DNA of 42,242 bases from a virus (lineage: Duplodnaviria; Heunggongvirae; Uroviricota; Caudoviricetes), in the IMG/VR virus record IMGVR_UViG_2657245570_000016; one strand, 5' to 3'. The position numbers were made by a program, and so were the translations under genes. Below are positions 271 to 17,211 of this stretch, piece by piece. Each line of letters starts with the position of its first letter. The stretch's first letter is position 1. Under the pieces are notes generated by a model. That model saw only the letters and a program-made list of their open reading frames with translations. It was not told the origin of the DNA and searched no databases.

Positions 271-476
271 TTACCGTTAAATCATTTTAAAAATCAGTAA
301 GTTGTATCGAGTTTGTATGCTTTACTGTCATTAACTTACTGTATGTTGATCCAGTGTATTTAACCTTGATAAACTCAGTCCAGTAACACAAAGCCGCAAC
401 ACATTGCATTTTGTCCCGTAGAAAAGACTTGTATGTGTGTGCTTGTTTTCTGCGCCTACGCAGATAAGGATTGAGA

Positions 477-1874
477 ATGCCGCGCACTGTAACACATAAT
501 CCGGATAGCCCCAATAATGACGATGTTTTAGCCGCATCTGAAAAATGGGACGCCTGTAAACCCCCCTATACCAGCGCACACATGAAAATCTGTGTTGCTG
601 CCGCCAAAATCATCCTCGCTGCTTCCGGCGTGGCTCGCCGTTCCAAATACGAAAAAGAGAACTATCTCCGTATCGATTTCAGCAAAGCCGGTAAGGTTAC
701 ATTTTACGCCGAGTTTCCAAAAAAGATGGGCCTCAAAGGTAAAAAGCTCGGCGAGTGGCCGGAGCTCGCTATCCAGCTGGCGCGCGAAAAAGCGCTAGGT
801 ATGGCTGACGGTGGCCTGCGGGCAGAGTCCGTACATGCAGCGCTGGAAATGTACCGGGATGACCTCAAAGCCAAAGTCGCCCGGCAGAAGCTGAGCCCGG
901 ACAGTTTCACAACCTACGGGGTGCGTATCGACCGGATTAAAGCAACGTTCGGCGAGCGCGAGGTGTTCAGCGACGTAACATACAATCGGCTGGTGGAAGT
1001 GCTGGACGAGTGGATCGCTACTCGCTCGAACAATAACGCCCTGGAGTTGTTTGCCGAGCTCCGTCGGTTCTGGAAGTTCTGCGCACCTACTCTTTGCAAC
1101 GGCCGCAATGTTGCCGCCAGTCTGCCAGATGATTATGTTTCCTCCCGCGTACAGAAACCTACCCCCACACGGCTTTTTACCGATATTGAATCAATCGCCC
1201 GACTCTGGCTCAATGTTGCTGCCTGCACCTCTGTACACCAGAAGAATGCTGTTCGCTTCATGATCATCACTGGTGTTCGTCCGATTAATGTCCATAACCT
1301 GCGCTGGGACTACGTTCACGAGGAGGCTGGTGAAATTGTTTATCCGGAAGGGGTTATCGGCATGCGAGGGGCTATGAAAACACAAAAGGCTTTCCGCCTG
1401 CCGATAACCCCTGAGATCCGGCGGATTATCGACGAGCAGAAAGCCTGGCGTGATTCAGTTCCTGAGTGCAACAGGGATTATGTATTTTTGCAGCCACGTG
1501 ATCCAATGCAGCCATTTTCAAAACGATCACTGGATAAGCTGGTGAAAACATACAGCCCGGACGGGGCTGTAAAAGGAATAAAACATGATGGGACTGTTAA
1601 AGGGAAAGACGGTGCATTTAATACGATGTGCCGTAAATTCCTTAAGAGCAATGTTATTGCCTTGATGAAGGAAAGAGGCTATTCCCGCTCAGACCGAAGG
1701 GAAATCAGCCTCCTTTGCCTTCACCACTCCAGCAAGTCAGATGACCCGATGGCAGAACATTACGACTTTTCTGATGAGATTTTACAGGAAGAGATTGCGT
1801 TGAAGCGCGAAGCTTTCGAGGCTCACGAGCGGAGCATACTTGCGCAGGTGGCATTGCTACGGCGGCGAGGTTAA
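477..1874 (+). CDS. int: Tyrosine-type site-specific integrase
   Basis: The ORF track starts at a TTG (471); the first ATG is at 477 with AGGA 7 nt upstream. C-terminal region has the spaced R...H..R...Y residues expected of a tyrosine recombinase (e.g. LLCLHHSS, AEHYDF). It sits at the prophage end next to an excisionase-like gene. Confidence 0.8.
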   Translation: MPRTVTHNPDSPNNDDVLAASEKWDACKPPYTSAHMKICVAAAKIILAASGVARRSKYEKENYLRIDFSKAGKVTFYAEFPKKMGLKGKKLGEWPELAIQLAREKALGMADGGLRAESVHAALEMYRDDLKAKVARQKLSPDSFTTYGVRIDRIKATFGEREVFSDVTYNRLVEVLDEWIATRSNNNALELFAELRRFWKFCAPTLCNGRNVAASLPDDYVSSRVQKPTPTRLFTDIESIARLWLNVAACTSVHQKNAVRFMIITGVRPINVHNLRWDYVHEEAGEIVYPEGVIGMRGAMKTQKAFRLPITPEIRRIIDEQKAWRDSVPECNRDYVFLQPRDPMQPFSKRSLDKLVKTYSPDGAVKGIKHDGTVKGKDGAFNTMCRKFLKSNVIALMKERGYSRSDRREISLLCLHHSSKSDDPMAEHYDFSDEILQEEIALKREAFEAHERSILAQVALLRRRG

Positions 1875-2071
1875 TACTGGCTGCGACATTTTTGAATAAA
1901 AGCGTCGATATTTCGGCGCTCATAACGAACTACTTTTGCACTGAAACGAATTGGTGCCAGGATAGCCCGATGACGATGCTTAATATTCCACTCACATAGC
2001 GTTTTCTGTGTAATACCTAACTTTTGGCATACTTCATCCGGGGTGAGTAAATCGTCGGGTTTCTCGCTCAT
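1871..2071 (-). CDS. AlpA-family helix-turn-helix regulator / excisionase
   Basis: 66-aa protein with an HTH-like segment (LLTPDEVCQKLGITQKTLCEW); position directly beside int; 4-nt overlap with the upstream helicase gene. Confidence 0.65.
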   Translation of the reverse strand: MSEKPDDLLTPDEVCQKLGITQKTLCEWNIKHRHRAILAPIRFSAKVVRYERRNIDAFIQKCRSQY

Positions 2072-3462
2072 GCTATACCTCTCTTTTTCATGGCATCGAG
2101 CAGGATGTCCTGCACTGTTCGTTTTGAGTTGCGCCGCTCCATCACCATTTCATCCATAGTGTCGGCAGCAATAATGTGGTGAATAAATACCGGACGATTG
2201 TGTCCGGCCTGTATCTGCCTGGTGGGGCCGATACGTTCAATAATTTGCTGATATTGCTCCAGGTCCCACCAGTGTGAGAAAAATACCAGTATATTTCCGC
2301 CGTCCTGCATGTTCAGGCCGTGGCCCGCGCTGGCTGGGTGTGCAAAGAGAACAGGAATCTTTCCGGAATTCCAGTCGCGCAGTGTCTGTGGATCCTGGTC
2401 GAGGTGACGACCGCGAGGGAATGCTTTAAGCAAGCGTTCAAGATCGTGTTTCCAGTGATAAGCAACCAGCACAGGTGCGCCAGCTGCTTCGGTCAGTATG
2501 CTGTCCAGCGCCTGTAGTTTGGTGTCATGCAGTTCTGACCAACTTCCGGTGTCATCTGTGTATACTGCGCCGCTGGCGATTTGCAGACACTTCAGTGTCT
2601 TTGCCGCGGCGTTCGGTGCTTCGATGCCTTCGCCATTCAGCTCGAGGAACATTTCCTTTTCCATTTCACGATACTGCTGACGGGCCTTCGGTGGCATATC
2701 CACGCGGATTACGTTATGGATGGGGTCTTTGATATCGAACCAGTCGGCCGCATCCAGCGAGAGGGTTACATCGGCTAACGCTCGCTGTATTTCACCCTGT
2801 GAGTGAGCAAAAGGCTCCAGTTTGGTCCAGCTCTGCCCCGGAAACTGTATCGAGTTGAACCAGCGTGAGGTAAACGCGCCGTAAGTGCGCCCGAGACGTT
2901 GCCCCTGGTCCACAAACCACGATTGTCCCCACAAATCTACCAGGCCGTTCGGTGCTGGCGTACCGGTGAGATTTATCCAGCGCCGGACATACTTATGCGC
3001 CACTTTGCCCAGCGCCGCCGCGCGCTTACCACCACCGCGCAGCCGGAAGGATTTTAGCCGGGTGCTTTCATCTGGAATGACAGTACCGAACGGCCATCGT
3101 TCTCCCAATTCTTCAATCAGCCAGACAAGGTTATCGTAGTTGATGGTGAACACGCTTGCGTTGCTGTTCGTCAGCGCCATAGAGCGCGCTTTGGCATTAC
3201 CAATAATTGGCTGCACCTCGATATTGCGCAAATGTCCCCACTTCAGTGCTTCATCCGGCCATGTGCTGGCAGCCACGCGCAGCGGCGCGAGGACCAGTGC
3301 GGGGCATGTTTCTGCCCCTGCCATAAAGAGATCTTCCAGCGCAGTGAGCGTTGCCACGGTTTTACCCATTCCCATCCCCGCCCAGATGTTGCCGCGCAGG
3401 GTTTCGGTTTCGTGGTTGATAATGAGAACTTGGTAGGGGCGAGGTATATATTTTGGGGGCAT
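2068..3462 (-). CDS. SNF2-family ATP-dependent helicase
   Basis: Motifs in the translation: Q-motif (PYQ), Walker A GMGMGKT, DExx-like VIPDESTRLK, motif III LTGTPAPN. Confidence 0.85.
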   Translation of the reverse strand: MPPKYIPRPYQVLIINHETETLRGNIWAGMGMGKTVATLTALEDLFMAGAETCPALVLAPLRVAASTWPDEALKWGHLRNIEVQPIIGNAKARSMALTNSNASVFTINYDNLVWLIEELGERWPFGTVIPDESTRLKSFRLRGGGKRAAALGKVAHKYVRRWINLTGTPAPNGLVDLWGQSWFVDQGQRLGRTYGAFTSRWFNSIQFPGQSWTKLEPFAHSQGEIQRALADVTLSLDAADWFDIKDPIHNVIRVDMPPKARQQYREMEKEMFLELNGEGIEAPNAAAKTLKCLQIASGAVYTDDTGSWSELHDTKLQALDSILTEAAGAPVLVAYHWKHDLERLLKAFPRGRHLDQDPQTLRDWNSGKIPVLFAHPASAGHGLNMQDGGNILVFFSHWWDLEQYQQIIERIGPTRQIQAGHNRPVFIHHIIAADTMDEMVMERRNSKRTVQDILLDAMKKRGIA

Positions 3463-3524
3463 ATAATATGGCTCCTAAACAACAAAAGGCCAATTTAGAC
3501 CTTTTGTTGTTTTAAAAATGTTAT

Positions 3525-4442
3525 TTATAATAGTGCTGTTACTATTGCATCTTTAAAAATATTTTCTTCTTCATTTATTAAAGGTGATGACAGATGAATA
3601 ATTACTTCTTTTCCTGTCAATACTATTTGCTCGACTTGAAATCCTGCGTTGTGTAGTCTTTGGCGTAACTTTTCTAGTGCTGATTTTGATATACTAAATC
3701 CTTCACTCCTTATAGTATAACTGGCAACTCCATTTTTAATAATATCTACAGAGTTGTCAATTTCCTGCTGCGAGTAATTTTTCGGTGAGTCGAAAAATCT
3801 GGATTTTGTCGTTGCTGTTGCCCTAAGAGATATCAATAATGATTTGATATCTTTAATCTCAGATGCCAGATACTCAGTTTCTGATACTTCTTTCTGGTCT
3901 AGTTGTGCAACTTTGAAAGTGCCAAAATGTTTGAGGAATGTTGTGTATTCAGGATCAGTTACTGACTTTAAATATGTTTCTTTTATCTTGCTCGCAAGTC
4001 TTTCTTTGAATAAATTGATTGATTGGTATCTTAAATCCGAAGGGTACTCTAAATGTTCAATTGATGAAATGTCAAAGCTATAAGGAGTGCGCTCGTCCTT
4101 AATAATTACGGTCGGTTTGTCAAATGCGAGACGCATTCCTAATTCAAACATTACATTAGCGTTTCGAGCACTTATATCGCAAACAACTATGGGGTTTTCA
4201 TAAAGATTTTGAACAATTCGTTTTTGTATTACTGCAACATCATCATCTGAACTTACCAAATTTGCCTTGAATCCGGCATCATTTGATGCTTCACAAATAA
4301 TGTCATGAACATTTCTCCAATGTCCAGTGGGATAACCTTCTATGTCCGCAATTGGCATAATAATGCCGCATATATGAGGTGGCATATTTTTGTTGTCTTT
4401 TACATCATCTTGGTTTATTTCTTTCGTTTGTTGCTTAGCCAT
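3525..4442 (-). CDS. Hypothetical protein: N-terminal TIR-like / nucleoside 2-deoxyribosyltransferase-like domain plus C-terminal domain of unknown function (about 170 aa)
   Basis: N-terminal ICGIIMPIA...IVVCDISARNANVMFELGMRLAFDKPTVIIKD...SFDISSIEHLEY resembles the conserved core (R.xNV.FE.G ... pSD..G..Y) of TIR-like/deoxyribosyltransferase-like folds. Visibly AT-rich relative to neighbours; good AGGAG Shine-Dalgarno before the ATG at 4440-4442. Confidence 0.5.
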   Translation of the reverse strand: MAKQQTKEINQDDVKDNKNMPPHICGIIMPIADIEGYPTGHWRNVHDIICEASNDAGFKANLVSSDDDVAVIQKRIVQNLYENPIVVCDISARNANVMFELGMRLAFDKPTVIIKDERTPYSFDISSIEHLEYPSDLRYQSINLFKERLASKIKETYLKSVTDPEYTTFLKHFGTFKVAQLDQKEVSETEYLASEIKDIKSLLISLRATATTKSRFFDSPKNYSQQEIDNSVDIIKNGVASYTIRSEGFSISKSALEKLRQRLHNAGFQVEQIVLTGKEVIIHLSSPLINEEENIFKDAIVTALL

Positions 4443-4457
4443 AGCTTACACAGACTC

Positions 4458-4742
4458 CTATTGTAATTTTTTGCCTAATATACATGAAAGCTCCTTACTA
4501 TCCAGTACTACCACGGTAAAGCCCAGTTTTCGCAGACGTTCATGCTCGCGCAACTGATCAGGTCGTGGTGGTTTGCCTGGTGCTTTGCATTCGACAAAGA
4601 CGATGCGACCGCCGGGTAGCAGAACAATGCGATCTGGTACCGAGCGGAGACCGGGAGATACGAACTTAAAGGCAACCCCGCCAGCCTTTTTTACTTCAGC
4701 GACGAGGTGCTTTTCGATTAGGTTTTCACGTTCATAGGCCAT
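4458..4742 (-). CDS. VRR-NUC domain nuclease (PD-(D/E)XK fold)
   Basis: VPDRIVLLPGGRIVFVECKAPGKPPRPDQL contains the PD...E-C-K catalytic arrangement of VRR-NUC proteins; commonly found beside SNF2 helicases in phages. Confidence 0.8.
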   Translation of the reverse strand: MAYERENLIEKHLVAEVKKAGGVAFKFVSPGLRSVPDRIVLLPGGRIVFVECKAPGKPPRPDQLREHERLRKLGFTVVVLDSKELSCILGKKLQ

Positions 4743-4936
4743 TAGCTTTCGCCTTCCTGCTTTTTGCGTTTCTTCATGCAGATAGCGCAGTTCTCAGGAT
4801 GGTCATGCCATTCGTCAATCCTGATACCTGTGAACATCCATTTTCCGCATAGTGATATGGCTTCCCCCGAATTAAAGAAATGTGCTTTTTTCGACAGGGC
4901 GGGGAACCCCCAACCTTTATTATCGATATTAGACAT
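4742..4936 (-). CDS. Small putative zinc-binding phage protein
   Basis: 64 aa with C-x12-H-x-H-x5-C-x2-C spacing (LCGKW...WHDHPENCAIC) and a basic tail; its stop overlaps the VRR-NUC start (TAATG on the minus strand). Confidence 0.45.
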   Translation of the reverse strand: MSNIDNKGWGFPALSKKAHFFNSGEAISLCGKWMFTGIRIDEWHDHPENCAICMKKRKKQEGES

Positions 4937-5120
4937 CGTCCACCTCCTTACGCTTTTCGCGCATGTTCTGCATCAGACAAAAATCAAACCGACGTTCGCT
5001 TTGGCCCAGACCTGCATCGCCCGGTCGTACCCGCTGGACTGTTCAAGGCGCAAAGCCTCCCGTGCAGTCCGGTAATAAAGCGGACTGTCCCGGTATTTAA
5101 ATGACATAGGGTTTTTATTC

Positions 5121-5147
5121 CCAAATAAAAAACCCCGCAATGCAGGG
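5121..5147 (-). terminator. Rho-independent terminator-like hairpin read on the minus strand
   Basis: Minus-strand RNA would form CCCUGC-AUU-GCGGGG (6-bp stem with one G-U pair) followed by UUUUUUAUUU. It lies about 25 nt downstream of the stop of the 5172..5933 gene. Confidence 0.5.
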
Positions 5148-5171
5148 TTGTAATCAACAATAAGGGGGTAA

Positions 5172-5933
5172 TTACGAGGAAGCGTTAGCTATTTGAGCTT
5201 GTGTAAATTCGAAACCAGAATTTTGTAACCGTTGCACTAGACGAGGAACTGTTTCACGTACATGGTCGTTGAAATTCAGATACAAAATCCCGTTAGCATC
5301 AGAAGGCTGTTCTAGGTGCTGTTTCTGAAGGATTGCTACATTGCTGCGCCCTAAGGACGAAAGAAGCATACCCATCTCGAGTACAACGTTCTGTCTTGCG
5401 CGGGGTTGGATTTCTGCTTCACCGGCGCGCTTTGAGTATCCCATATCATCAGGTGTCAAAAGAACAATCCCGAAACGAGTAGCAGTTTGTCCTTGCCCAA
5501 TTTCACGTTCAAGCTCTTCAATAATGGTGAGTCCAGTCCCTCCCGTATTCTGCAAAATGAAATGGTCTGGTAATCCAAGTTTATGAAGGATTAGCTCAAG
5601 TTGTTCCTTTGCAGTATGGTCATGGCCGTGAACAATGAATATCTTTTTGGGAAGCTCAGATGGCTGTTCTACGGCTAGTGGTGTTGCCGTGGGGGGCGTT
5701 CCTAAATGGGACATTATTGCAGTTTCAACATTGGGACGTTCTTGAGGGTTCCCTTGAAACTGAATGGTCCGGGTGGTGTAAAGGTTAACAATTACGCCAT
5801 TCGTTAAACGATAGCAGTCATAAGTCTCACGCTGTTCGTGGGAAAAATTGGTGAACCCACACTCCCTCAAAAAGTCAGGAAAAGATTCTCTCGGGTATGG
5901 ATAGTTGATCGGCATTTCAGTTAGTTCCTGCAT
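5172..5933 (-). CDS. Hypothetical protein: N-terminal domain of unknown function (about 90 aa) plus C-terminal TIR-like domain (Cap12/PycTIR-type predicted nucleotide-binding fold)
   Basis: C-terminal KKIFIVHGHDH...FGIVLLTPDD...RARQNVVLEMGMLLSSLGRSNVAILQK...PSDANGILYL matches my recollection of the TIR-like consensus (FIvHG ... TPDD ... RaRqNVvfElG ... pSD..G..y). GC content looks lower than the flanking pol gene. AAAGGA Shine-Dalgarno before the ATG. Confidence 0.55.
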   Translation of the reverse strand: MQELTEMPINYPYPRESFPDFLRECGFTNFSHEQRETYDCYRLTNGVIVNLYTTRTIQFQGNPQERPNVETAIMSHLGTPPTATPLAVEQPSELPKKIFIVHGHDHTAKEQLELILHKLGLPDHFILQNTGGTGLTIIEELEREIGQGQTATRFGIVLLTPDDMGYSKRAGEAEIQPRARQNVVLEMGMLLSSLGRSNVAILQKQHLEQPSDANGILYLNFNDHVRETVPRLVQRLQNSGFEFTQAQIANASS

Positions 5934-5997
5934 AAGTATTGTTCCTTTAATTTACTCGAATTCAGCATGTCGCCATAGCTCGATAAGGTGAGTTATA

Positions 5998-8061
5998 TCA
6001 ATCTTTTTTGTAGTGGTACGCCTCAAAGCCGCCAGCGTTCAGCGGAATATCGGGTGCCCATTCGGGGTTAGTGGAGAGAAGCGCGGAAAGCGCTTTATCG
6101 TTGAAATCTTCTGTGTCTGGTGCTTCGGTGATCACCTCGTCGTGTACCGTTAGCACAATGCTGTAACCGGCACCCTCGATCAGCGGCATGTTTCTGGCTA
6201 GAACGTCGCGGGCGGCCGCCTGGGTGACGTTCTCCACCAGCTTTCCGCCGTAGGTTTTGAGTCGTTGCCATTTACGCGAATAAGAGTTAACACCCATGTA
6301 GGTGATATTCCCTTGTTCGATAACCGGAGACGGGTAGCATACAGCGCGTCCGGATGGTAGCTGTATGCGCAGCCACGCGCCATCACGTCGGATTTTAAGA
6401 TAGCCGCAATACAATGTTTTTTGCGGTGTGGCGATTGCTGTGCGGACAGTGCGCTCCAGCTCGTACCAGAAATCGCAGGTCGCCGGGTGCGCCCTGCGCC
6501 ACAGGCGCTTGAGCGAGTCACATGCGATGAATACACGCTCGGACAGGCCAAAGGTCGACTTACGCTTAACCGATTCGTCGTACCAGCTTTTTGCCTCGCG
6601 GATAACATCGCGGGGAATGTTTGGCAGTGCGGCGTTCGCCAGCTCGTCGAGATCGAGACCGTAAACCAGAGCAAAAGTGATGAAAGCCGATACACCACCT
6701 CCATAACCCAGACCGAGTTCCATGACTTTACCGATCTGACGCATGTGTTTATCAACATCATCTGGTGCAATATCGAAAGCTTTTGCATACGCCAGTTTAT
6801 ATAAGTCCGGACCCGTTCCAGCGTCATACTCTCTGAATGCATTCAGTTTCCATTCTTCTCCCGCCAGCCATGCCAGCATACGGCCTTCAATGTTTGACAA
6901 GTCACTTACCACTAGTTTTTTGCCTGTTGGCGCGATAATGCAGCCACGTAACGCTGAACTGGTTAGTTCCATGATATTGTCAAACAGCAGGTCTGCACAT
7001 CCGGCTTTCAGTGCTTCGATGCCTTCGTCTATTTGTTCCTGTTTTAGTGAAGGGCGGGGAAGGTTCTGGGGCTGGAATAGCCGTCCGGCCCAACGACCGG
7101 TACGTGACGCCCCGCAGAACTGTAGCGTACCGCGTAAGCGCCCGTCGTGGCTTACGCCTTTCATCAGTGCCTTGTATTTACTGGTGCTGGTAGTACTGGC
7201 TTGCAGGCGGATAGCCAGCAGTTCTTTCACGGCAGATGATAAATCGGGGTCGGCCATACGACGTTCCAGGGTACTGCGTTGCATGTCTGGTAGCTCCACA
7301 CCGTAGGATTCAACGATGTGCTTAATCAACGCGTCCCGTTGTGTGGCTGCCTGCACTTCGCCATCAGTCATTTCCTGTGTACGCTTTGCCAGGCGCTTTT
7401 GCTCCTGGTCTACCGCTTCGATCGCAGCGCGCGCGAGTTGCATGTCCATGCAGACGCCCCGGTCGTTGATCTGCTGATCACGATGCCAGAGCGCCAGCTC
7501 TGTCCCCTGATAATTCCACTTCGGCAGACGTTTATAGACTTCACGCATTGCTTCGATATCCAGTCCGGCGTAAGCAACAAAGCGCCGCCATTCTTCCGGA
7601 TGGGTTTTACTGGTGGCCCGACGCAGTTTGCTGTTTTTCGGACGTGGCTTACAGAACAGCTGGATCAGCGCTTTACCTTCTTTGTCCTTCGCTTTGTCTT
7701 GCGGGACGCCTAGTACTTCGCAGAGTTCCCCCAGAGACCCCGGGAGACCGTGCGCCAGCGCCTGCACCATCGTGTCGCGCCAACGTTCGACTGGCGGTGC
7801 CAGTCGCGGCATTGCATAACGCAGAACGGTGCGGTCGAAGTGAGAGTTATGGAAATAAAGCAGGGTTTCAGGGTCTGCGATTGCTTCGTATAAGCCGTGT
7901 GGAATACCACCACCGGCAGTGATATCCCACACGTTTACTGGCCCGTCGTTGATAGCCCATGCGAAAAGCATCACTTCAACGCCTTCGGCATACGCATGGG
8001 TACCGTTCGTAATAGGGATTTCGCAATAGGTTTCCAGGTCGCCCCATAGTATATTGGACAT
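5998..8061 (-). CDS. Family A (Pol I-like) DNA polymerase with N-terminal 3'-5' exonuclease domain
   Basis: 687 aa; N-terminal exonuclease motif (GDLETY) then a long polymerase region; a typical partner of DUF2800/DUF2815/VRR-NUC/SNF2 replication modules. Confidence 0.8.
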
Positions 8062-8107
8062 GTGTTTACCTAGGTTTTTATTCTATTAACTGATTAAAAG
8101 ATTAATT

Positions 8108-8737
8108 ATGCATATGATCCAATACTTGATTGACCATACAGAGCATCTGGAGAAAATAGCTGGATATATTTTTTCATGTTTGATTGTTATGGGAGTCTGG
8201 ATAAGAAAGATCATTTTTAATTATAAGTATAAAGAGCCTAAATATGTCAAGAAGTTAATTTTATATTTAATTAAGTATGAACGTTATCTGGATAAGGAGG
8301 ATAAGAAAGCCATAGAAAAAAGAATAAATGATAAAATTATTCGTGATGCGCTGAAATTGCAATCCTCTTATAACCGAAGAGATGTTATTTACATTTGCAA
8401 TAGATTAGAAAAAAGACAGTATATAAATCAGTTGATTAAGCTTCAGAATTATATAGAGAAAGATAACGGAGTGTTTTTTATTAATGTTGATTTTTCAGGT
8501 TTTTTATTTATTATTAGTCGTCTGTTTTCCTTTCTGTGTTTTGTGCTGTTTACCCTTTTTTCTATTATCTGCATTATTTCCATAGGGCAAAATGAAGGCC
8601 TTTTAAATTATCTTGTGTATATGGTTATGATAATAGTTTTAGAGACTGTTGGTTTTTGGATGTATGATACTTTCCCGTCTAAGAAAAAGATCTGTGAACT
8701 AAATAAAGAATTGAGAAAGATTAAGATTCCTGAGTGA
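8108..8737 (+). CDS. Hypothetical integral membrane protein (AT-rich moron on the opposite strand)
   Basis: Strongly AT-rich coding sequence. Predicted N-terminal transmembrane helix (IAGYIFSCLIVMGVWI), a Lys/Tyr-rich soluble middle, and two C-terminal hydrophobic helices. Convergent with the flanking early genes. Confidence 0.55.
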   Translation: MHMIQYLIDHTEHLEKIAGYIFSCLIVMGVWIRKIIFNYKYKEPKYVKKLILYLIKYERYLDKEDKKAIEKRINDKIIRDALKLQSSYNRRDVIYICNRLEKRQYINQLIKLQNYIEKDNGVFFINVDFSGFLFIISRLFSFLCFVLFTLFSIICIISIGQNEGLLNYLVYMVMIIVLETVGFWMYDTFPSKKKICELNKELRKIKIPE

Positions 8738-8755
8738 TTATACGCCTAATCAGTA

Positions 8756-8774
8756 GCCCGGTGTTTAACCGGGC
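8756..8774. terminator. Hairpin between convergent genes (possible bidirectional terminator; no clear U-tract)
   Basis: GCCCGGT-GTTTA-ACCGGGC, a perfect 7-bp stem between the 8108..8737 (+) and 8790..9338 (-) stops. Confidence 0.3.
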
Positions 8775-8789
8775 GTCTATGAAGTAGGG

Positions 8790-9338
8790 TTAAATTAGTG
8801 CTTCAGCATCAGCACCTTCGCTGATATCGTCGAAATCGTCAGCGCTTGCCACTCCGCCGCCAGCGAATGCATCGCCGTCTCGCAGGAACTGGACTCCGCC
8901 GAGTGAGGCATTAATGCGTTTACCGAAATTATTGTCCTGTGCCCAGATATCGATAACGGCGTTTACATAGCACCCTGCATAAGGACGTCCGTCAGCCTGA
9001 ATAAGTGGCGAACGATCGCGATCAAGAACAGCTGGGCGCGCTTTGTTAGCAGCATTCAGGAAGAAATTGCCGGGGAAGCCTTCATACTCTGCTTTTTCAT
9101 CACCATCATGCAGGCACAGATTGAGTTTTTTCTCCAGCTGGTTATAAATGGGCTCCCACTTCTCTCCCCATTTTTCCTTCGCTACCTGCTTCATAGCTTT
9201 ACGGATTTCTTCCAGTTGTGGGTGTTTGGGAGACATTAAAAATACTGCGGAGAAACGCGGATCGCCTTCGCCGTTTACAGTTTTAGCTTCAAACAGAGAC
9301 GGGAAGGCCAGACGAACATTGTTCAGCTTCAGTTTCAT
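8790..9338 (-). CDS. DUF2815-like phage protein (putative ssDNA-binding / replication accessory)
   Basis: N-terminus MKLKLNNVRLAFPSLFEAK and acidic C-terminal tail as I recall for DUF2815 proteins; adjacent to a DUF2800-like nuclease. Confidence 0.6.
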   Translation of the reverse strand: MKLKLNNVRLAFPSLFEAKTVNGEGDPRFSAVFLMSPKHPQLEEIRKAMKQVAKEKWGEKWEPIYNQLEKKLNLCLHDGDEKAEYEGFPGNFFLNAANKARPAVLDRDRSPLIQADGRPYAGCYVNAVIDIWAQDNNFGKRINASLGGVQFLRDGDAFAGGGVASADDFDDISEGADAEALI

Positions 9339-9353
9339 GGGTATTTCCTTAAA

Positions 9354-10655
9354 TCAGATGAGGTCTGCGGTTAGCGTATCGTCGGATACGTCGTCGAAAT
9401 CATTTACAGGGTTGATATTGAGTGCGGGGCGTGGGTCTGACTCGGGAACGACGGTTGGTTTACCATCAGCTCGTGTTATCAGTGCCTCGACTTTTGACCA
9501 ACGGCGTGGACTGGCCTTTTTGATAAGTTTTTCGGCTTTTGTGGGACTAATAAGTTTAAAGTCGAATACTTCTTCAGTTTTGTACCTGAACTGGTCCTTC
9601 AGAAGTGCGCGAGCTGCCTCTTCATCACTCCAGGCCCGGTTACCTTGTTTTCCTGTTACCAGTTTAAACCCCGGTACCGGATGTCCGGCATTGAGTTCAT
9701 TGTGAACCCGGTCCCGTACTGCCTTTAGCCAGGACTCAATAAAGTCGGCCTGGCTATAGATCTCCGCAAGCTGCTCAATGGTTAACAGAGGTACACGTGC
9801 GCTGGCATTGGTGATTATTTCGCTGACAGGCTTTGTCAGATCTTCAAAGTCGCTGGCCGCTGTTTGTAAATGCTGCATTTTCTGGGCAGTGCAAATAGCT
9901 TTTGCTTTACAGAAGCGGCACTGCTTTTCTCCAGGTATGAAGTTTTCCAGCGGTAGTGTCTCAATGCCTTCGCATTCAGCAATATTGAGAACAAGGATCG
10001 CACTGGTTGCGGCCTCCTGTGCTCGTTTACCGAAAGACTGAAGTTCCTGCACGGTTAACGACCATTCTGAAACGTGGTTGAGCCTTGGCTGGTGAATAAA
10101 TAATCTTACAGTCTCAAAGTCATACAGCATGCTGAATTGTTCGAGAGCACCCAGAGCATACAGTTGTAGTTGCTCATTTTGTTCTGCATCAATGCGGACG
10201 CCTTTGCCATATTTCAGGTCGTGGATTTGTAATTCGCTACCAGCGATGATTATGCCGTCGGCAGTTCCGAAAGATTCTTCCACACCCGTTATATGTGAGA
10301 AATCAACACGTTGTTCAACCAATAGTTCATTATTCTGTGCAAGAGTCCAGACCGTATCAACATACCGGCCAACGGCTTCGACCATTTCATCATCCACCTG
10401 TGGGCCAGATGTATCATCAGGATTTTCGCGAAGGGGGTATGAGCCGAGAAACATAGAAACATTGCATCCGGCGTAGTGTTCCGGGTGGCTTTGCCTGTTT
10501 CGTAGAACTTTTTCAGCAAGCGCGTGCGCTGCAGTGCCCTCGATTGCAAAAGTTGTTTCTTTATCCGGTTGTGTGGCCTCCAGCGCCAGACTTCCTGGGC
10601 AGCGCATCCATCGATGCGCTGATGATGGAGAAAGTTGTGCATGAACGTCTGGCAT
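9354..10655 (-). CDS. DUF2800 / Cas4-like PD-(D/E)XK nuclease
   Basis: N-terminal [14 protein letters not shown] motif plus a cysteine cluster ([10 protein letters not shown]) consistent with Cas4/RecB-like nucleases. Confidence 0.65.
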
Positions 10656-10657
10656 GA

Positions 10658-11560
10658 TTAACCCTCCAGTGCTTTTTCAGCCAGGGTGATTACTTCAGCG
10701 AGATTTTCATCCGTTACTTCACCAAGTTTCCTGGCTCCCTGTTTTTCCAGAATTGCAATAGCTTCTGCCCGGTAACCCCCTTTTGCTAACTGGAGGATCA
10801 ACCCTTCAGCTTGTTTGCGTAGTGCCGCGAAATCAATTGTATGGTCATCTTTGGCGTCATTATTCTGGCTGGAATTTGCTGTGTCTCTGCGTGCAAATTC
10901 TTCCTGCAGCTGAAGGTACTCAACACGGTTGGTCTCGATATGGCCTTTTTTCAGCATCTCGTTCAACTTGCGTAAGGTGTGGAGTTCACTGGCTGCTGTG
11001 CCGGATACATTTTTGACGTAAAACGGCCCCGTGCGTTCTCCATCTTTGTTACTGGCCTTTTTCGGCTTAACTTCATCACGCCCATCCGCAGGTGCATCAA
11101 GTAGCTGCTCGGCAAAAGCACGTCGCTCGCCGATGGTTGGCAGGTCGTCCCAGAACTTAAGGATGTTACGGGACAGGTCCAGGAGAGCAGGTTTAAGCAG
11201 CGCCCTGGCTCGTTTGACGCCCTGCAATGCGCTGTCGAGAGCATCAATCTGAACTACTCGTTTATCGCCTTCAGCATCACGGTAGGCAACAGCACGTTGC
11301 AGCATGTCTTCTGTGATAGGGGTGGCTACTGGGTAGAAACCAGCCAGTGCGATAACGTCGCTGAACTCCAGATCATCCAGTGTCATTGCCGCTGACATAT
11401 TTTCAGTTTCAGTTGCTGTATCCCGACATTCCTGCACTCGTGAAATCGTGTCAGGATGCATAACAATACCTGATGCCATTGTGCGGATAAGACGTTCAAG
11501 CAGCGCATTATGTTGTGCCAGAAGTTGATTATTAAGTTCGAGACTGGTTTCTAAACTCAT
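10658..11560 (-). CDS. Hypothetical phage early protein
   Basis: 300-aa ORF in the early-left operon, 3 nt from the downstream gene; no recognisable motif. Confidence 0.5.
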
Positions 11561-12875: not shown

Positions 12876-13550
12876 TTAGTACATGCGTAGCGCGGATTTG
12901 GCGATCCCCGCCACGTAATGGATTTTTTCAATGTTTTCGCGTGGTACTCTGACTGGTGGATGATCTTCATTTACAGACATTAGATGGAACAGGCCATCGC
13001 GTTCGAACAAGAAGGTTTTAACCATGACCTCACCGTCCCGGGTAACCACAAGTACTTCATCACCAGGAGTGTAGTCGTGGTTGGGTTCGACGATTACGAA
13101 CTCACCCTCTTTGATTCTAGGCATCATTGAATCACCAACACATTTCAGGGCGTATGCATCTTCATCCTTTGTCGGCCAGTATATGAAACCATCACTGCTA
13201 CCTACTGAATATTGGGTGTCGCTCCAAAGTCCTCCAACGCCTAGCTGAGTGTTTCCCAAAACAGGTACTTTATTAAACCTAAGAGAAATATACGTTTTTA
13301 TACCCGTCGCGTCCTCTTTCTCCATTTCTTGAAGGCTCCTTTCTGCCAGGTCTATTGGTGACACGTGGAAGTAGTCGGCGATCTGCTTTAACGTTGCGTA
13401 TTTCGGATCTTTCACCTCTCCTGATACCAGCCTGTGTAGCGTTGGTTGGTTCAGTTGTAACCGACGTGCCAGCTCAGTTATCGAGCTTATCTTGGCTTTG
13501 TCCATCAGGTACTTGATGTTTTGAGAAAGGATATCGGTAGTATCAATCAT
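12876..13550 (-). CDS. cI: CI-like phage repressor (HTH plus S24 LexA-type peptidase domain)
   Basis: N-terminal HTH (ITELARRLQLNQPTLHRLVSGE) and C-terminal S24 motifs (GDSM serine, VMVKTF lysine); divergent from a Cro-like gene. Confidence 0.9.
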   Translation of the reverse strand: MIDTTDILSQNIKYLMDKAKISSITELARRLQLNQPTLHRLVSGEVKDPKYATLKQIADYFHVSPIDLAERSLQEMEKEDATGIKTYISLRFNKVPVLGNTQLGVGGLWSDTQYSVGSSDGFIYWPTKDEDAYALKCVGDSMMPRIKEGEFVIVEPNHDYTPGDEVLVVTRDGEVMVKTFLFERDGLFHLMSVNEDHPPVRVPRENIEKIHYVAGIAKSALRMY

Positions 13551-13691: not shown

Positions 13692-13892
13692 ATGTCCGGA
13701 CTAACACCACAAGAGATGGTCAAAAGCTTGATTGATTCAGGGTATACCCAAAACCAAATTGCCGAAATTGCAGGCGTGAAGCAGTCTTCTATTAGTCGGC
13801 TTCTCACCGGGGTTCATTCTGACCCTCGCTTTTCTACAGTACGTGCGATAGAAAAGCTTTTTCAGGAAGTGACAGCTAGACAAAAGGCGTAA
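13692..13892 (+). CDS. cro: Cro-like HTH regulator
   Basis: 66 aa with HTH (YTQNQIAEIAGVKQSSISRLLTG); divergent from cI; GGAG Shine-Dalgarno. Confidence 0.7.
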   Translation: MSGLTPQEMVKSLIDSGYTQNQIAEIAGVKQSSISRLLTGVHSDPRFSTVRAIEKLFQEVTARQKA

Positions 13893-13895
13893 CCC

Positions 13896-16157
13896 ATGTC
13901 TGATAACAAACCATGGGGAGCTACGCCCGATGAGTGGTTCCACTTCGATCTGGTGTTGGGGATGACAGACAGGCTTTTACCTGTGGTGTCCAATCCCTGT
14001 GCAGAACTGTCGCCTAATAGCAAGCTGTCTCATAATTTCGGCAAAACCCCCAGTCGCTACAATGGCCAACGTAAGGTTGTTGGTATCCCCGACTGGGCTA
14101 ACTATGTTGTTACGGAAAACGATTTTGCCCGGTGGTCGAACGAACCCGATTACGGTATTTGCGTTCGTACTGGCGACGGGGTGGTGGCTCTGGACTGCGA
14201 TATCAATGACGCCGGGATGCAGGAGATCGTACGCAATATTATCCTGTCATGCCTGGGGGAACTTCCGCCACGTCGCTGGCGGGCTGACAGTCATAAATGC
14301 CTGTACCTGATTGCTGTTGATGGCGACTACCGTAAACGTGGTCACCGCCTGGAAGGCGAAAACAAACAAATAGAGCTGCTCGCTAAGGGCCAGCAGTTTG
14401 TGGCTTGTGGTACCCATCCGGCAGGCGAACGTATTCAGTGGGACTGCGGTCTGCCCGGCGAACCTCTGAAAATTACATCTGAACAGCTCGAAAGCCTGTG
14501 GCAGCGTCTGGCGGATAACTTACCCGTGAAAGACAGCTATACCGCAGGTGCAGGACGTCAGCGTGATCTTTCCTGTGTTGATCCTTCCGCGACAGATGAT
14601 GTCGCCGACTGGCTTGACGCGAACGGGTGGACTCTGTCAGTCAGCTCTGATGGTTCCCGCAATCTGAAACCGTTTCGGGATGAGTCAGAATACAGCAACG
14701 GTTGCAGCGAAACATCCATTAAGTATTTCCCAAAAGGGACGGGGGGATTTGAACAGGGACATTTTAAAAGCATGCACAACACCGATGCGGGGCTTACTGA
14801 TGCCGACTGGCTGGAAGGCTACGGCTATACGCAATCCCTGTTCGAAGATCTCACGGTGGTTGAAGATGGCGATAAGCCTGAATTTACCGATATTAATACA
14901 GATATGACAGCTCATTTTCTGGAACGCTTTATCTACGTCATCGAGGGTGACCAGGTATGTGATCTTAGCCGACCGCCATATCAGTGCATGATGGATATGA
15001 AGTCGTTCAAAAACCTGATGGCGCCTTACCAGTTCCCGCCAGAAGGGAAAGGGCAACCAACTCCCGCAACCAAACGGTGGATAGAGCATCGGCATAAGAA
15101 GATTGCTGAGACGACAGGCTATAAGCCCGGTGCGGGACGTATTATCGAGCGTTTCGACGGGCGGTTTGAGATAAACGAATTTTATATGCCTGAGCATCCA
15201 CGTACAGCGGATACAAGTAAGGTGTCCACGTTCCTTAATCATATGGCGTATCTGGTACCTGATGCCTGGCAGCGCGAGTTTTTCATCGCCCGTCTGGGGT
15301 GGATGGTTCAGCGTCCGGAGCGTCGATGCCCGATTTCTATTCTGCATGTGGCTTCCGCACATGGTACGGGCAGAGGATGGGTCAGCCAGTTAATGGAGCG
15401 CGTGCTTGGTCCGTGGAACTGTGCTCGTACTCGCATGAAGATCCTGTGCGATAACCAGTTCCATGACTATCTGTACAATACGCTTCTATGCACCATTGAC
15501 GAGGTGCGCGAAAATGATAAGCGGTATGAGGTGAACGATAAGATCCGTGACGTGCTGACAGAACCACGGTTTGAAGTGAACCGCAAATATGGCAGCAAAA
15601 AAACGATGGATATATACACCGGCTTTCTGTTCTACACCAACCACTTTGATGCGCTGGCGCTGCCAGAGGAAGACCGACGTATCGCTGTGCTGGGGGGCCC
15701 TGACTTCGCCGCAACTGAAGAGCATTACGCCAGCCTGTACGGTGCGCTAAGCGACAGCGACTTTATCGCCCAGGTGTACTGGTATCTGATGGGCGTTGAC
15801 CTGTCTCGCTTTAACTGGCAGCGCGCCCCCGAGACGAAAGAACGCCTTCTGATGATTGAAAGCAATAAGAGCGATGTGGAGGCTGCTCTTATTGAAATCC
15901 TGGATAATCCGCCTGTGCCAGCAATGACTTATCAACAAATTGTTAACGCAATACTGGCAGAAGCAGGAATGGATGTAGAAATTAACCAGAAGCATATTAC
16001 TCGCATTTTGAAAGAAAGAACAAAGCGGGAACCCGTACGCGTAAAAATTGACGGGTTTGTATATAGGATTTGGATTCTTGTAAAAAATAACGATTTCAGC
16101 AACGAAGAATTGCGCGAAATATATAAATCTTGCGAAATTTTGCAATCTGGATTGTAA
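13896..16157 (+). CDS. Replication primase (prim-pol N-terminal domain with P4/D5-type primase-helicase-like C-terminal region)
   Basis: 753 aa directly after cro and directly before an iteron-rich origin; N-terminal acidic VALDCDINDAG-type segment; large C-terminal NTPase-like region. Assignment is by architecture and context. Confidence 0.6.
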   Translation: MSDNKPWGATPDEWFHFDLVLGMTDRLLPVVSNPCAELSPNSKLSHNFGKTPSRYNGQRKVVGIPDWANYVVTENDFARWSNEPDYGICVRTGDGVVALDCDINDAGMQEIVRNIILSCLGELPPRRWRADSHKCLYLIAVDGDYRKRGHRLEGENKQIELLAKGQQFVACGTHPAGERIQWDCGLPGEPLKITSEQLESLWQRLADNLPVKDSYTAGAGRQRDLSCVDPSATDDVADWLDANGWTLSVSSDGSRNLKPFRDESEYSNGCSETSIKYFPKGTGGFEQGHFKSMHNTDAGLTDADWLEGYGYTQSLFEDLTVVEDGDKPEFTDINTDMTAHFLERFIYVIEGDQVCDLSRPPYQCMMDMKSFKNLMAPYQFPPEGKGQPTPATKRWIEHRHKKIAETTGYKPGAGRIIERFDGRFEINEFYMPEHPRTADTSKVSTFLNHMAYLVPDAWQREFFIARLGWMVQRPERRCPISILHVASAHGTGRGWVSQLMERVLGPWNCARTRMKILCDNQFHDYLYNTLLCTIDEVRENDKRYEVNDKIRDVLTEPRFEVNRKYGSKKTMDIYTGFLFYTNHFDALALPEEDRRIAVLGGPDFAATEEHYASLYGALSDSDFIAQVYWYLMGVDLSRFNWQRAPETKERLLMIESNKSDVEAALIEILDNPPVPAMTYQQIVNAILAEAGMDVEINQKHITRILKERTKREPVRVKIDGFVYRIWILVKNNDFSNEELREIYKSCEILQSGL

Positions 16158-16159
16158 AA

Positions 16160-16424
16160 AGGTGACGGCTAGGTGACGGCAAAACGCTTAAGCGTCACCT
16201 TAAAAAGTATATATAAAACAATGGGAAATGTGCTAAAGGTGACAGGTGACGGCAGAATTTAAAACTATATACGCGATAGTGTGTATTTTAGGTATTATAC
16301 GATCGCTTATATATAGAGAACTAAAATCAACCGTCACCTGTCACCTAAAACATCTTCAGGCCTTATATGGCGCGCTTTGCAGCAGGTGACGGATATGTAA
16401 TTACGCGTCACCTAGCCGTCACCC
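16160..16424. repeat. Putative replication origin: about ten GGTGAC(R)G iterons in inverted blocks around an AT-rich centre
   Basis: GGTGACGGCTAGGTGACGGC (16161-16180) is mirrored by GCGTCACCTAGCCGTCACC (16406-16424); AGGTGACAGGTGACGG (16237-16252) is mirrored exactly by CCGTCACCTGTCACCT (16331-16346); AT-rich centre around 16200-16320. Confidence 0.6.
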
Positions 16425-16472
16425 GGAAATTAACTTGAAAAAATTAGCAAATAACTAAATGAGGATACGACG

Positions 16473-16763
16473 ATGTCAAAGATATTCCGCCAATGTATGC
16501 CTTACGGTATCCGCAAAACAGCTGAGGGGGCTTGGGAAGCATTCAACAGAGACTACCAGCCCTTAGGGGAGGCTTTTTTCTTCAAAAGAGCACTAACGCA
16601 GGCCACTCGAGATGTGTTGGCGCCACCGCCGGTAACTCAGCGCGACGACTGTGTATGGCTGTATAGCGATATCGAGCACCCGATGCACTCTGAGGCTTAC
16701 TGGAAAGCGTATTGCCAGCGGCTTAAACATCTTTCTAACCTCAAAATGAAAGATGAACGGTAA
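16473..16763 (+). CDS. Hypothetical phage protein
   Basis: 96-aa ORF with a Shine-Dalgarno (GAGGA), between the origin and the Q-like gene. Confidence 0.45.
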   Translation: MSKIFRQCMPYGIRKTAEGAWEAFNRDYQPLGEAFFFKRALTQATRDVLAPPPVTQRDDCVWLYSDIEHPMHSEAYWKAYCQRLKHLSNLKMKDER

Positions 16764-16788
16764 GTAGCAAAACGTAGAGGTCAGAGCT

Positions 16789-17211
16789 ATGCGTGATATT
16801 CGACTGGTTTTAGAGCGATGGGGGGGCTGGGCTGCGAGCGAAGGTTGCAGTGTCTACTATCCACCTGTTTCCGCTGGATTTAAGAATCTGCTACCTGCAA
16901 CGCAAGCCGGGCGGCTGAAGTGCAGTGACAATGACGGTCTGATCATCAGCTCTGCTATGAACTGCCTGAAGAAAAAAGATCCGTACCTGTGTACGCTCCT
17001 TGAGTGGCATTACATCCAGGCGATGCCTGTGAGGGCTATGGGTGTGAAGCTCGGCGTATCACACACTCAAGTTCTGAAGAGGCTCCAGGCTGCAGAGGGA
17101 TTTATCGACGGCTGCCTGGCTATGCTGGACGTGGTTCTGGAAATGGATCAAGCAGTTCAGTCAAAGCCTAAGGCTATCAGGACTTTGCGAAGGAGCTGCC
17201 CGGCGGCATAA
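16789..17211 (+). CDS. Late-gene antiterminator, Q-like
   Basis: N-terminus MRDIRLVLERWGGWAA resembles Q-family antiterminators as I recall them; positioned before a terminator and the lysis genes. Confidence 0.6.
   Translation: MRDIRLVLERWGGWAASEGCSVYYPPVSAGFKNLLPATQAGRLKCSDNDGLIISSAMNCLKKKDPYLCTLLEWHYIQAMPVRAMGVKLGVSHTQVLKRLQAAEGFIDGCLAMLDVVLEMDQAVQSKPKAIRTLRRSCPAA

Follow-up and report, generated by a model that had tools for sequence, protein, structure and literature searches.

An iteron array downstream of a fused primase-helicase gene as the probable replication origin of a temperate Escherichia coli phage

The DNA analysed here (42,242 nt; referred to as the window) is that of a temperate E. 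coli phage. The stop codon of its 753-aa primase-helicase gene ends at 16157 and is followed by a 315-bp non-coding gap before a 96-aa ORF. This gap contains an array of short repeats, the first of which starts 4 nt after the stop codon, at 16161. What is the array for, and which protein reads it? A preliminary description of the region had taken it for an origin of replication, directly downstream of the primase gene and bound by the adjacent initiator or primase. The array, its relatives in other genomes and the neighbouring protein were therefore analysed computationally.

The iteron array and its surroundings

A CI-type repressor with an S24 peptidase domain (12876-13550, minus strand) and a Cro-type HTH protein (13692-13892) are encoded ahead of the initiator gene (13896-16157, plus strand). 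The array is followed by the 96-aa ORF (16473-16763) and the antiterminator Q (16789-17211), after which come holin, endolysin and terminase; an integrase gene lies at 471-1874 (plus strand). Holin, endolysin, terminase, head, tail, baseplate and tail fibres are encoded both by the window and by an identical phage record. A private replisome set is located in a leftward operon (2068-11560, minus strand), apart from the initiator and presumed origin in the rightward operon. Its members, all on the minus strand, are an SNF2-type helicase (2068-3462), a family-A DNA polymerase (5998-8061), an Enc34-type ssDNA-binding protein (8790-9338) and a DUF2800 PD-(D/E)XK nuclease (9354-10655). Inserted among these replication genes is the gene (5172-5933, minus strand) of a 253-aa protein that contains a CAP12/Pycsar-effector TIR domain (E = 3e-31); the gene is perhaps a passenger with a role in defence or counter-defence.

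Ten GGTGAC cores, five per strand, were located within 16161-16423. Iterons 1 and 2 (16161-16168 and 16172-16179, plus strand) both read GGTGACGG and iteron 3 (16192-16199, minus strand) reads GGTGACGC. Iterons 4 (GGTGACAG, 16238-16245) and 5 (GGTGACGG, 16245-16252) are on the plus strand and have one base in common. They are followed on the minus strand by iterons 6 (GGTGACGG, 16331-16338) and 7 (GGTGACAG, 16338-16345). Iteron 8 (GGTGACGG, 16385-16392) is on the plus strand, and iterons 9 (GGTGACGC, 16405-16412) and 10 (GGTGACGG, 16416-16423) are on the minus strand. The motif GGTGACRG is matched by eight of the ten, all except the two GGTGACGC sites, in agreement with the preliminary count of about ten GGTGAC(R)G copies in mirrored blocks. 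Going by the frequency of the core in the rest of the window, 0.16 copies of GGTGAC would be expected in the array [Poisson P(≥10) = 3e-15]. GGTGACRG occurs 13 times in the window (2.07 ± 1.45 expected), with eight copies inside the 263-bp array; the other five GGTGACGG copies are scattered singletons, so that the array is the single cluster in 42 kb.

The sites are laid out as an outer triplet (+ + -), an inner pair (+ +), an AT-rich centre, an inner pair (- -) and an outer triplet (+ - -), with core-to-core spacings of 11, 22, 44, 7, 88, 7, 45, 22 and 11 bp. The outer triplets have an exact mirror axis at 16292.0, and the axis of the inner pairs is at 16291.5. The segment 16237-16252 is, as previously described, an exact inverted copy of 16331-16346, and 16161-16179 matches the inverted 16405-16423 at 18 of 19 positions. 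The large-scale dyad symmetry that had been proposed holds for site placement and for the short central arms; it does not extend to the spacers, the ungapped identity of the whole array to its own reverse complement being 39% (25 ± 4% for shuffled sequences).

The centre (approximately 16253-16330, 77 bp) has a GC content of 26%, compared with 49% for the window, which bears out the AT-rich centre described earlier; it is presumed to be the unwinding element. It carries a conserved TATATACGCG palindrome with a left arm TATATACGCGATAGT (16266-16280; 87% complementary, inverted repeat I4) and a conserved right arm ACGATCGCTTATATA (16299-16313). Within the left arm, TATATACGCGAGA hardly varies from genus to genus. 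A conserved non-coding tail (16424-16472, plus strand) separates the array from the next ORF and includes TTGAAAAAATTAGCAA at 16435-16450; the tail motif CGGnAATTAAC-TTGCAGAAAAnTGCAAATAAC is kept in E. coli, Klebsiella, Izhakiella, Erwinia and Serratia.

Several smaller features were noted around these elements. A palindrome, TTGCGAAATTTTGCAA, lies within the last codons of the initiator gene (16130-16145) and is resembled by TTGAAAAAATTAGCAA (TTGCAGAAAAnTGCAA in relatives). The two palindromes bracket the ten iterons and both are conserved across genera; further copies of the TTGC-N8-GCAA palindrome were not found in the window. The right spacer contains GCCTTAYRTGGCG (16363-16377), conserved in the E. 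coli, Klebsiella and Salmonella relatives, whereas its mirror image on the left is variable and rich in A and T; in this respect the otherwise symmetric element is asymmetric. An IHF-like site picked out by eye in the left spacer was dropped as unconserved. GC skew tracks the direction of transcription and is uninformative on the origin.

The initiator and its relatives

[quoted passage not shown] The protein matches PHROG 1156 ('DNA primase'). The DUF5906 helicases of its clade are D5-like SF3 helicases (PMC9611036). When the whole protein was searched against PDB sequences, the helicase domain of NrS-1 was the sole match (4e-8), with none for the C-terminal tail. The full-length AF2 model (pLDDT 80) was matched by Foldseek to the phage NrS-1 polymerase (E = 1e-15) and also to ASFV PrimPol, MPXV E5/vaccinia D5 and the pRN1 prim-pol (3m1m). 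SaPI5 PriRep5 (7OLA/7OM0) was matched with E values of 8e-6 to 2.6e-5, a probability of 1.0 and a TM score (target) of 0.42-0.50, whereas at the sequence level PriRep5 gave no match at E ≤ 1. Specific similarity to the DNA-binding domain of P4 alpha was not seen among the matches listed. In the structure model residues ~672-753 (15909-16154, plus strand) form a winged helix, with a predicted recognition helix at residues 698-709 (15988-16023) and predicted wing strands at residues 714-718 and 721-727 (16036-16077). These computations show the protein to be a predicted fusion of an AEP primase, a D5-like SF3 helicase and a C-terminal winged helix.

In many enterobacterial 'replication proteins' (P0046-P0120 and L012-L014) the partner of this same N-terminal Prim-Pol is a VapE/VirE-type helicase (PF05272), and the identity of the Prim-Pol reaches 97% over 44% of the query. 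The primase half and the helicase-plus-binder half are here shuffled as domains. Loci L012-L014, whose match is limited to the Prim-Pol domain and whose helicase partners are of the VapE type, were left out of the analysis.

The segment 15800-16800 is 100% identical in the deposited phages vB_EcoM-606R2, -611R5, -689R2 and -683R1, the only four deposited phage records in which the module was found. The segment 16100-16480 was found in 45 of 5,426 complete E. coli genomes, as one chromosomal copy each and in three bands of identity; 22 genomes have a copy that is at least 99% identical. The homologues number roughly 460. Twenty related loci were compared, from E. coli, Salmonella, Klebsiella, Serratia, Erwinia, Izhakiella, Xenorhabdus, Arsenophonus, Limnobaculum, Avibacterium and metagenomes. 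The wider sample (Izhakiella, Erwinia, two Serratia, Klebsiella aerogenes, two Xenorhabdus, two Arsenophonus, Limnobaculum, Avibacterium and metagenomes) has initiators 36-82% identical to the 753-aa protein. One of the E. coli copies belongs to an Stx2b-converting prophage, in which a module of the GG class (see below) is followed by Q, tRNA-Arg and stxA2b/stxB2b (strain STEC435; locus L003, 1297-6184).

The 3+2 / AT / 2+3 geometry recurs among the 20 loci. The cores lie 4 (+), 15 (+), 37 (-), 81 (+) and 88 nt (+) from the stop codon on the near side of the AT-rich segment and about 176 (-), 183 (-), 228 (+), 250 (-) and 261 nt (-) from it on the far side. These standard offsets are kept in about 14 of the 20 loci, down to a protein identity of about 57%; the array is shifted or enlarged in four and differently arranged in two. 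The first iteron lies 4 nt past the stop codon in about 15 related loci and 20-110 nt further on in five. An AT-rich segment between the inner pairs is present in all related loci. The order cI-cro-initiator-gap-(small ORF)-Q was found in 11 of the 13 wider loci with called genes. The exceptions are a contig that ends just past the gap and a locus (L022, 47% identical over the helicase part) in which the gene context differs and no array lies downstream of the gene.

Some individual loci depart from this picture. Arrays of 14 sites in Arsenophonus (L024, 3541-3940) and of 12 sites in a metagenome (L020, 3586-3990) have extra iteron blocks upstream of the standard layout, so that the number of sites is not fixed at ten. 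In Erwinia tracheiphila (L011, 1501-3745) the initiator frame stops after 139 codons and the downstream array is intact, which suggests a decaying prophage. In Xenorhabdus bovienii (L021, 3820-3999) a second, unrelated set of repeats, GTAACAACC, is present just past the array in at least seven copies and in both orientations. No close relatives were found in the plasmid collection, in which the helicase homologues are only 21-28% identical and are carried on small circles. Two of these, P. mirabilis pW47-1 (L026, 6590-6870) and E. coli pRHB04-C06_4 (L027, 4690-4975), are 8.9-kb circles with GGTTACA repeats, arranged bidirectionally around a gap, downstream of a DUF5906 helicase that is 25-28% identical. 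They may be satellites or defective phages, one of them encoding a tape-measure protein; GGTTACA arrays after a helicase gene on such circles fit a self-sufficient module.

Co-variation of iterons and winged helix

When six diverged E. coli copies were aligned, the positions of the sites were found to be kept and the core to be changed in all ten together. Across the relatives the core switches in concert at eight to ten of the ten sites per genome, being GGTGAC, GGTGGC, GGTAAC, GGTGTC, GGTAGC or TGACACAG. In E. coli the iterons are GGTGACGG in the window, GGTGGCAG in C11, STEC435, O121 and TB06051, and GGTAACAG in B771 and CUVET16. The E. coli initiators show a few scattered differences in residues 1-702 and otherwise differ only in residues 703-745, where the differences follow the iteron class. 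These variable residues map to the recognition helix and wing of the confidently modelled winged helix. Compared as DNA, the window and C11 share 99.6% identity over 13896-15995, 65-92% over 15996-16415 and 97-100% over 16416-16775. The comparison delimits an exchangeable specificity cassette (15996-16423, plus strand) consisting of the DNA-reading part of the predicted winged helix and the whole array, and shows by computation that a cassette of 420 bp (winged-helix tail and iterons) has been swapped as a unit among the E. coli relatives.

The protein motif ..REPVRVKIDGFVYRIW pairs with GA iterons and ..REAVKLKVDGMTVRMW with GG iterons. The wing ..PTDLVKxxGMGYRFW pairs with AA in backbones from E. 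coli, Serratia and Arsenophonus whose identity is just 64-69%, ..GCTNRFW pairs with GT and ..GVPQRFW pairs with AG. Wings that differ essentially only at residues 721-723 and 725 are found with different iterons (FVY..I with GA, CTN..F with GT). For two Salmonella initiators the core was predicted from the wing and the prediction was recorded before look-up: GGTGAC for P0004 and GGTGGC for P0008. Both were found, at ten of ten sites and in the standard layout.

The co-varying protein segment adjoins the iterons and linkage alone could carry both. The argument therefore rests on the concerted change of ten sites, on the recurrence of the pairing in unrelated backbones and on the exclusion of other candidates. 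The B771 prophage has a Cro 100% and a CI 99% identical to those of the window, yet AA iterons; C11 has a downstream ORF identical to that of the window, yet GG iterons. O121 and CUVET16 have one repressor in common and differ in their iterons, and the type of terminase varies inside one iteron class. Of the proposal that the adjacent primase binds the array, the adjacent gene product thus stands and the primase domain does not: the comparison supports the C-terminal winged-helix domain of the fused PrimPol/SF3-helicase initiator as the probable recognizing part.

The origin reading and its alternatives

Because the motif and the DNA-binding tail change together in related phages, the array is very probably a replication origin. 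We put at roughly 85% the probability that it is the phage's origin of vegetative replication and forms one unit with its initiator gene. The origin layout proposed in the preliminary description is thus supported by the comparison with relatives. Between cro and Q only the primase-helicase and the 96-aa ORF are encoded, the latter without a family match, and no other initiator was found there.

A mechanism can be proposed by analogy with the SaPI Reps (PMC9371898) and other SF3 initiators, from which the docking, self-loading, priming and extension steps are taken. After induction, transcription from the cro promoter would produce the initiator protein. Its winged-helix domains would dock on two mirror-image half-origins, each of five sites (the outer + + - triplet and the inner tandem pair), and two oppositely oriented hexameric helicases would load themselves, one on each flank of the 77-bp AT-rich centre. 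The centre would then melt, possibly assisted by cruciform extrusion, and the N-terminal PrimPol domain would prime. Bidirectional synthesis would be carried out with the family-A DNA polymerase, the Enc34-type SSB and the accessory nuclease and helicase of the leftward operon. It is speculative that binding between the initiator gene and Q also modulates the timing of late-gene expression.

The array lies within the pR transcript, between the replication gene and Q, and a consensus scan gave no promoter or terminator on the plus strand in or after it, which makes read-through likely; dense binding could modulate this. The array might accordingly be mainly a transcriptional control element, its sites, occupied by the primase-helicase or some other factor, acting as a roadblock that times read-through into the late-gene activator Q or as a means of autoregulation, rather than a start of replication. 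We consider this very unlikely. An AT-rich centre with a conserved palindrome and inverted sets of sites is the architecture of an origin and not of an operator (PMC9371898, PMC6092414), the proposed binder is fused to a helicase and a primase, and the layout is the same whether Q follows directly or other genes intervene. A transcriptional role would moreover add to an origin function and not exclude it. Much the same low probability is given to a functional element of about 110 nt (up to 265 nt) that is read by its shape as a stem-loop or cruciform, the repeats being incidental to the stem. As single-stranded DNA 16237-16346 folds with -25.5 kcal/mol (z = -8.3) and 16158-16426 with -57.6 kcal/mol (z = -8.6), and in pRN1 a 100-nt stem-loop located 3' of a gene of this domain architecture serves as the origin (PMC4234260). 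A stem, however, needs only that each arm match its partner; here five arm pairs per genome share one core and change together, and the direct repeats (sites 1-2 and 4-5) co-vary too, which calls for a common reader of sequence. Consensus folding of the centre over 14 loci gave the iteron stem as the only conserved pairing, and the structure-only explanation was rejected on this basis.

Linkage could also mimic co-variation if the sites were bound by a different factor (a host factor, a partition or packaging protein or another phage regulator) and the initiator tail varied independently; the genomes of the relatives were examined in part. This we regard as extremely improbable, because none of CI, Cro, the downstream ORF, Q and terminase follows the iteron class and at least five specificities within E. 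coli and Salmonella are inexplicable by a host factor. The prophage is chromosomal in all 45 genomes, no par genes were seen, and the wing-to-iteron rule correctly predicted new cases. That the stretch encodes a small protein or a small RNA is almost certainly wrong. A 47-codon ORF with a GTG start (16246-16389), the array's only one, is present, but it is never annotated and contains 1-nt and 4-nt indels in relatives. The repeats themselves, for which a coding role in relatives had been named as the finding that would speak against an origin, are never annotated as coding in six E. coli genomes and the 13 loci with called genes. The weak, hairpin-type Rfam matches in 15900-16800 are to eukaryotic miRNA models only and score 21-27 bits against gathering scores of 76-117; being sub-threshold, they are a mere echo of the inverted repeat.

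If the array is the origin, an origin and an initiator, their function inferred, are assigned for a widespread and unstudied family of enterobacterial temperate phages that includes an Stx2b-converting prophage. For the replication regions of non-lambdoid Stx phages, the literature states that nothing is known of the proteins involved (PMC8951638). The module of the STEC435 Stx2b prophage is a candidate for one such region and may be one of the primase-bearing 'Eru' types of that paper. Since an element of this kind is expected beside a phage initiator gene, the result is useful rather than surprising. It indicates that the 'PICI-type' origin layout is not confined to satellites, and the near-isogenic natural variants would allow direct tests in E. 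coli of protein-iteron recognition, of replicon orthogonality and of the way a D5-like primase-helicase melts an origin.

A more far-reaching proposal is tentative and, taken as a whole, rather doubtful. The 420-bp cassette would be a freely exchangeable module that defines, inside a single phage family, at least five to six mutually orthogonal replicon types (GA, GG, AA, GT, AG and TGACACAG), in which wing residues 712-716 and 721-723 may set the central dinucleotide of GGTnnCAG. Its diversification could be driven by selection against cross-activation of co-resident prophages or against piracy by satellites, and the module would supply the origin and initiator of one 'Eru' Stx-phage replication region. 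If true, this proposal would give a simple natural code of protein-DNA recognition.

Comparison with known replicons

SV40 large T and papillomavirus E1 are SF3 initiators that assemble as two hexamers on dyad-symmetric short sites beside AT-rich or palindromic melting elements. Their SF3 relationship has been described (PMC9611036). The phage module resembles them in its SF3 helicase initiator with a separate, predicted origin-binding domain and in its dyad-symmetric short sites. It differs in that T and E1 belong to eukaryotic viruses, have an origin binder of another fold N-terminal to the helicase and lack a primase domain. In lambda, the DNA-binding part of the initiator O and its iterons form an exchangeable specificity unit beside an AT-rich region. 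Examples of such exchangeable initiator-iteron units are found in Stx phages (PMC7466680). The cI-cro-replication-Q setting and the exchangeable initiator-iteron specificity are common to lambda and the present phage. In lambda, however, the O gene itself contains the origin, host DnaB is recruited via P and O is not a helicase; here the array is intergenic and no O or P homologue was found.

[quoted passage not shown] The domain order, the position of the presumed origin just 3' of the gene and the stem-loop potential are the same here. The pRN1 origin is without iterons (PMC4234260), whereas in the phage array iterons make up the stem arms and co-vary with the protein, and there is no conserved pairing outside them. 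The alpha protein of P4 reportedly combines a primase, a D5-like SF3 helicase and a C-terminal winged-helix iteron binder (Ziegelin and Lanka 1995; Yeo et al. 2002, cited in PMC4234260 and PMC9611036). The phage protein likewise has a D5-like SF3 helicase followed by a predicted winged-helix DNA binder in one polypeptide. P4 depends on ori and crr, two cis sites that lie apart, whereas the phage has a single iteron cluster; the motif also differs. The P4 primase is of the Toprim/DnaG type (PMC4234260), unlike the AEP Prim-Pol found here, in which Pfam detected no Toprim.

The closest known kind is the Pri-Rep-ori of the SaPIs and PICIs (SaPIbov1, SaPI1, SaPI5 and EcCICFT073). In these elements 6-12 short iterons form two opposed sets around an AT-rich region, the origin being 3' of the initiator; the latter is a self-loading SF3 helicase (primase-fused in SaPI5), and each element has its own matched set of initiator and iterons (PMC9371898, PMC6092414). 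The winged-helix C-terminal domain of PriRep5 binds iterons that lie directly 3' of its gene and flank an AT-rich region (PMC9371898), and the same iteron/AT organization drives plasmid replication in the E. coli PICI EcCICFT073 (PMC6092414). Experiments have thus established the function of such modules both in SaPIs and in EcCICFT073 (PMC9371898, PMC6092414). The phage module has its presumed origin 3' of the initiator gene, opposed sets of iterons (ten, five per side) around an AT-rich centre and an SF3 helicase with a predicted C-terminal winged helix, and it has a matched initiator-iteron pair as judged from co-variation, cassette swap and blind prediction. It differs in its 8-bp GGTnnC(A/G)G iterons, in a 3+2 / 2+3 geometry that is rigid across genera and in that the phage supplies its own PolA, SSB and nuclease set. 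It also belongs to a temperate phage that is complete, with genes for lysis, terminase, head and tail, and not to a satellite. Given this full set of virion and lysis genes the element is not a PICI, and the type of replicon alone is shared: the module can be placed, as a probable member, in the known SaPI/PICI/P4-type class of self-loading initiator-origin units.
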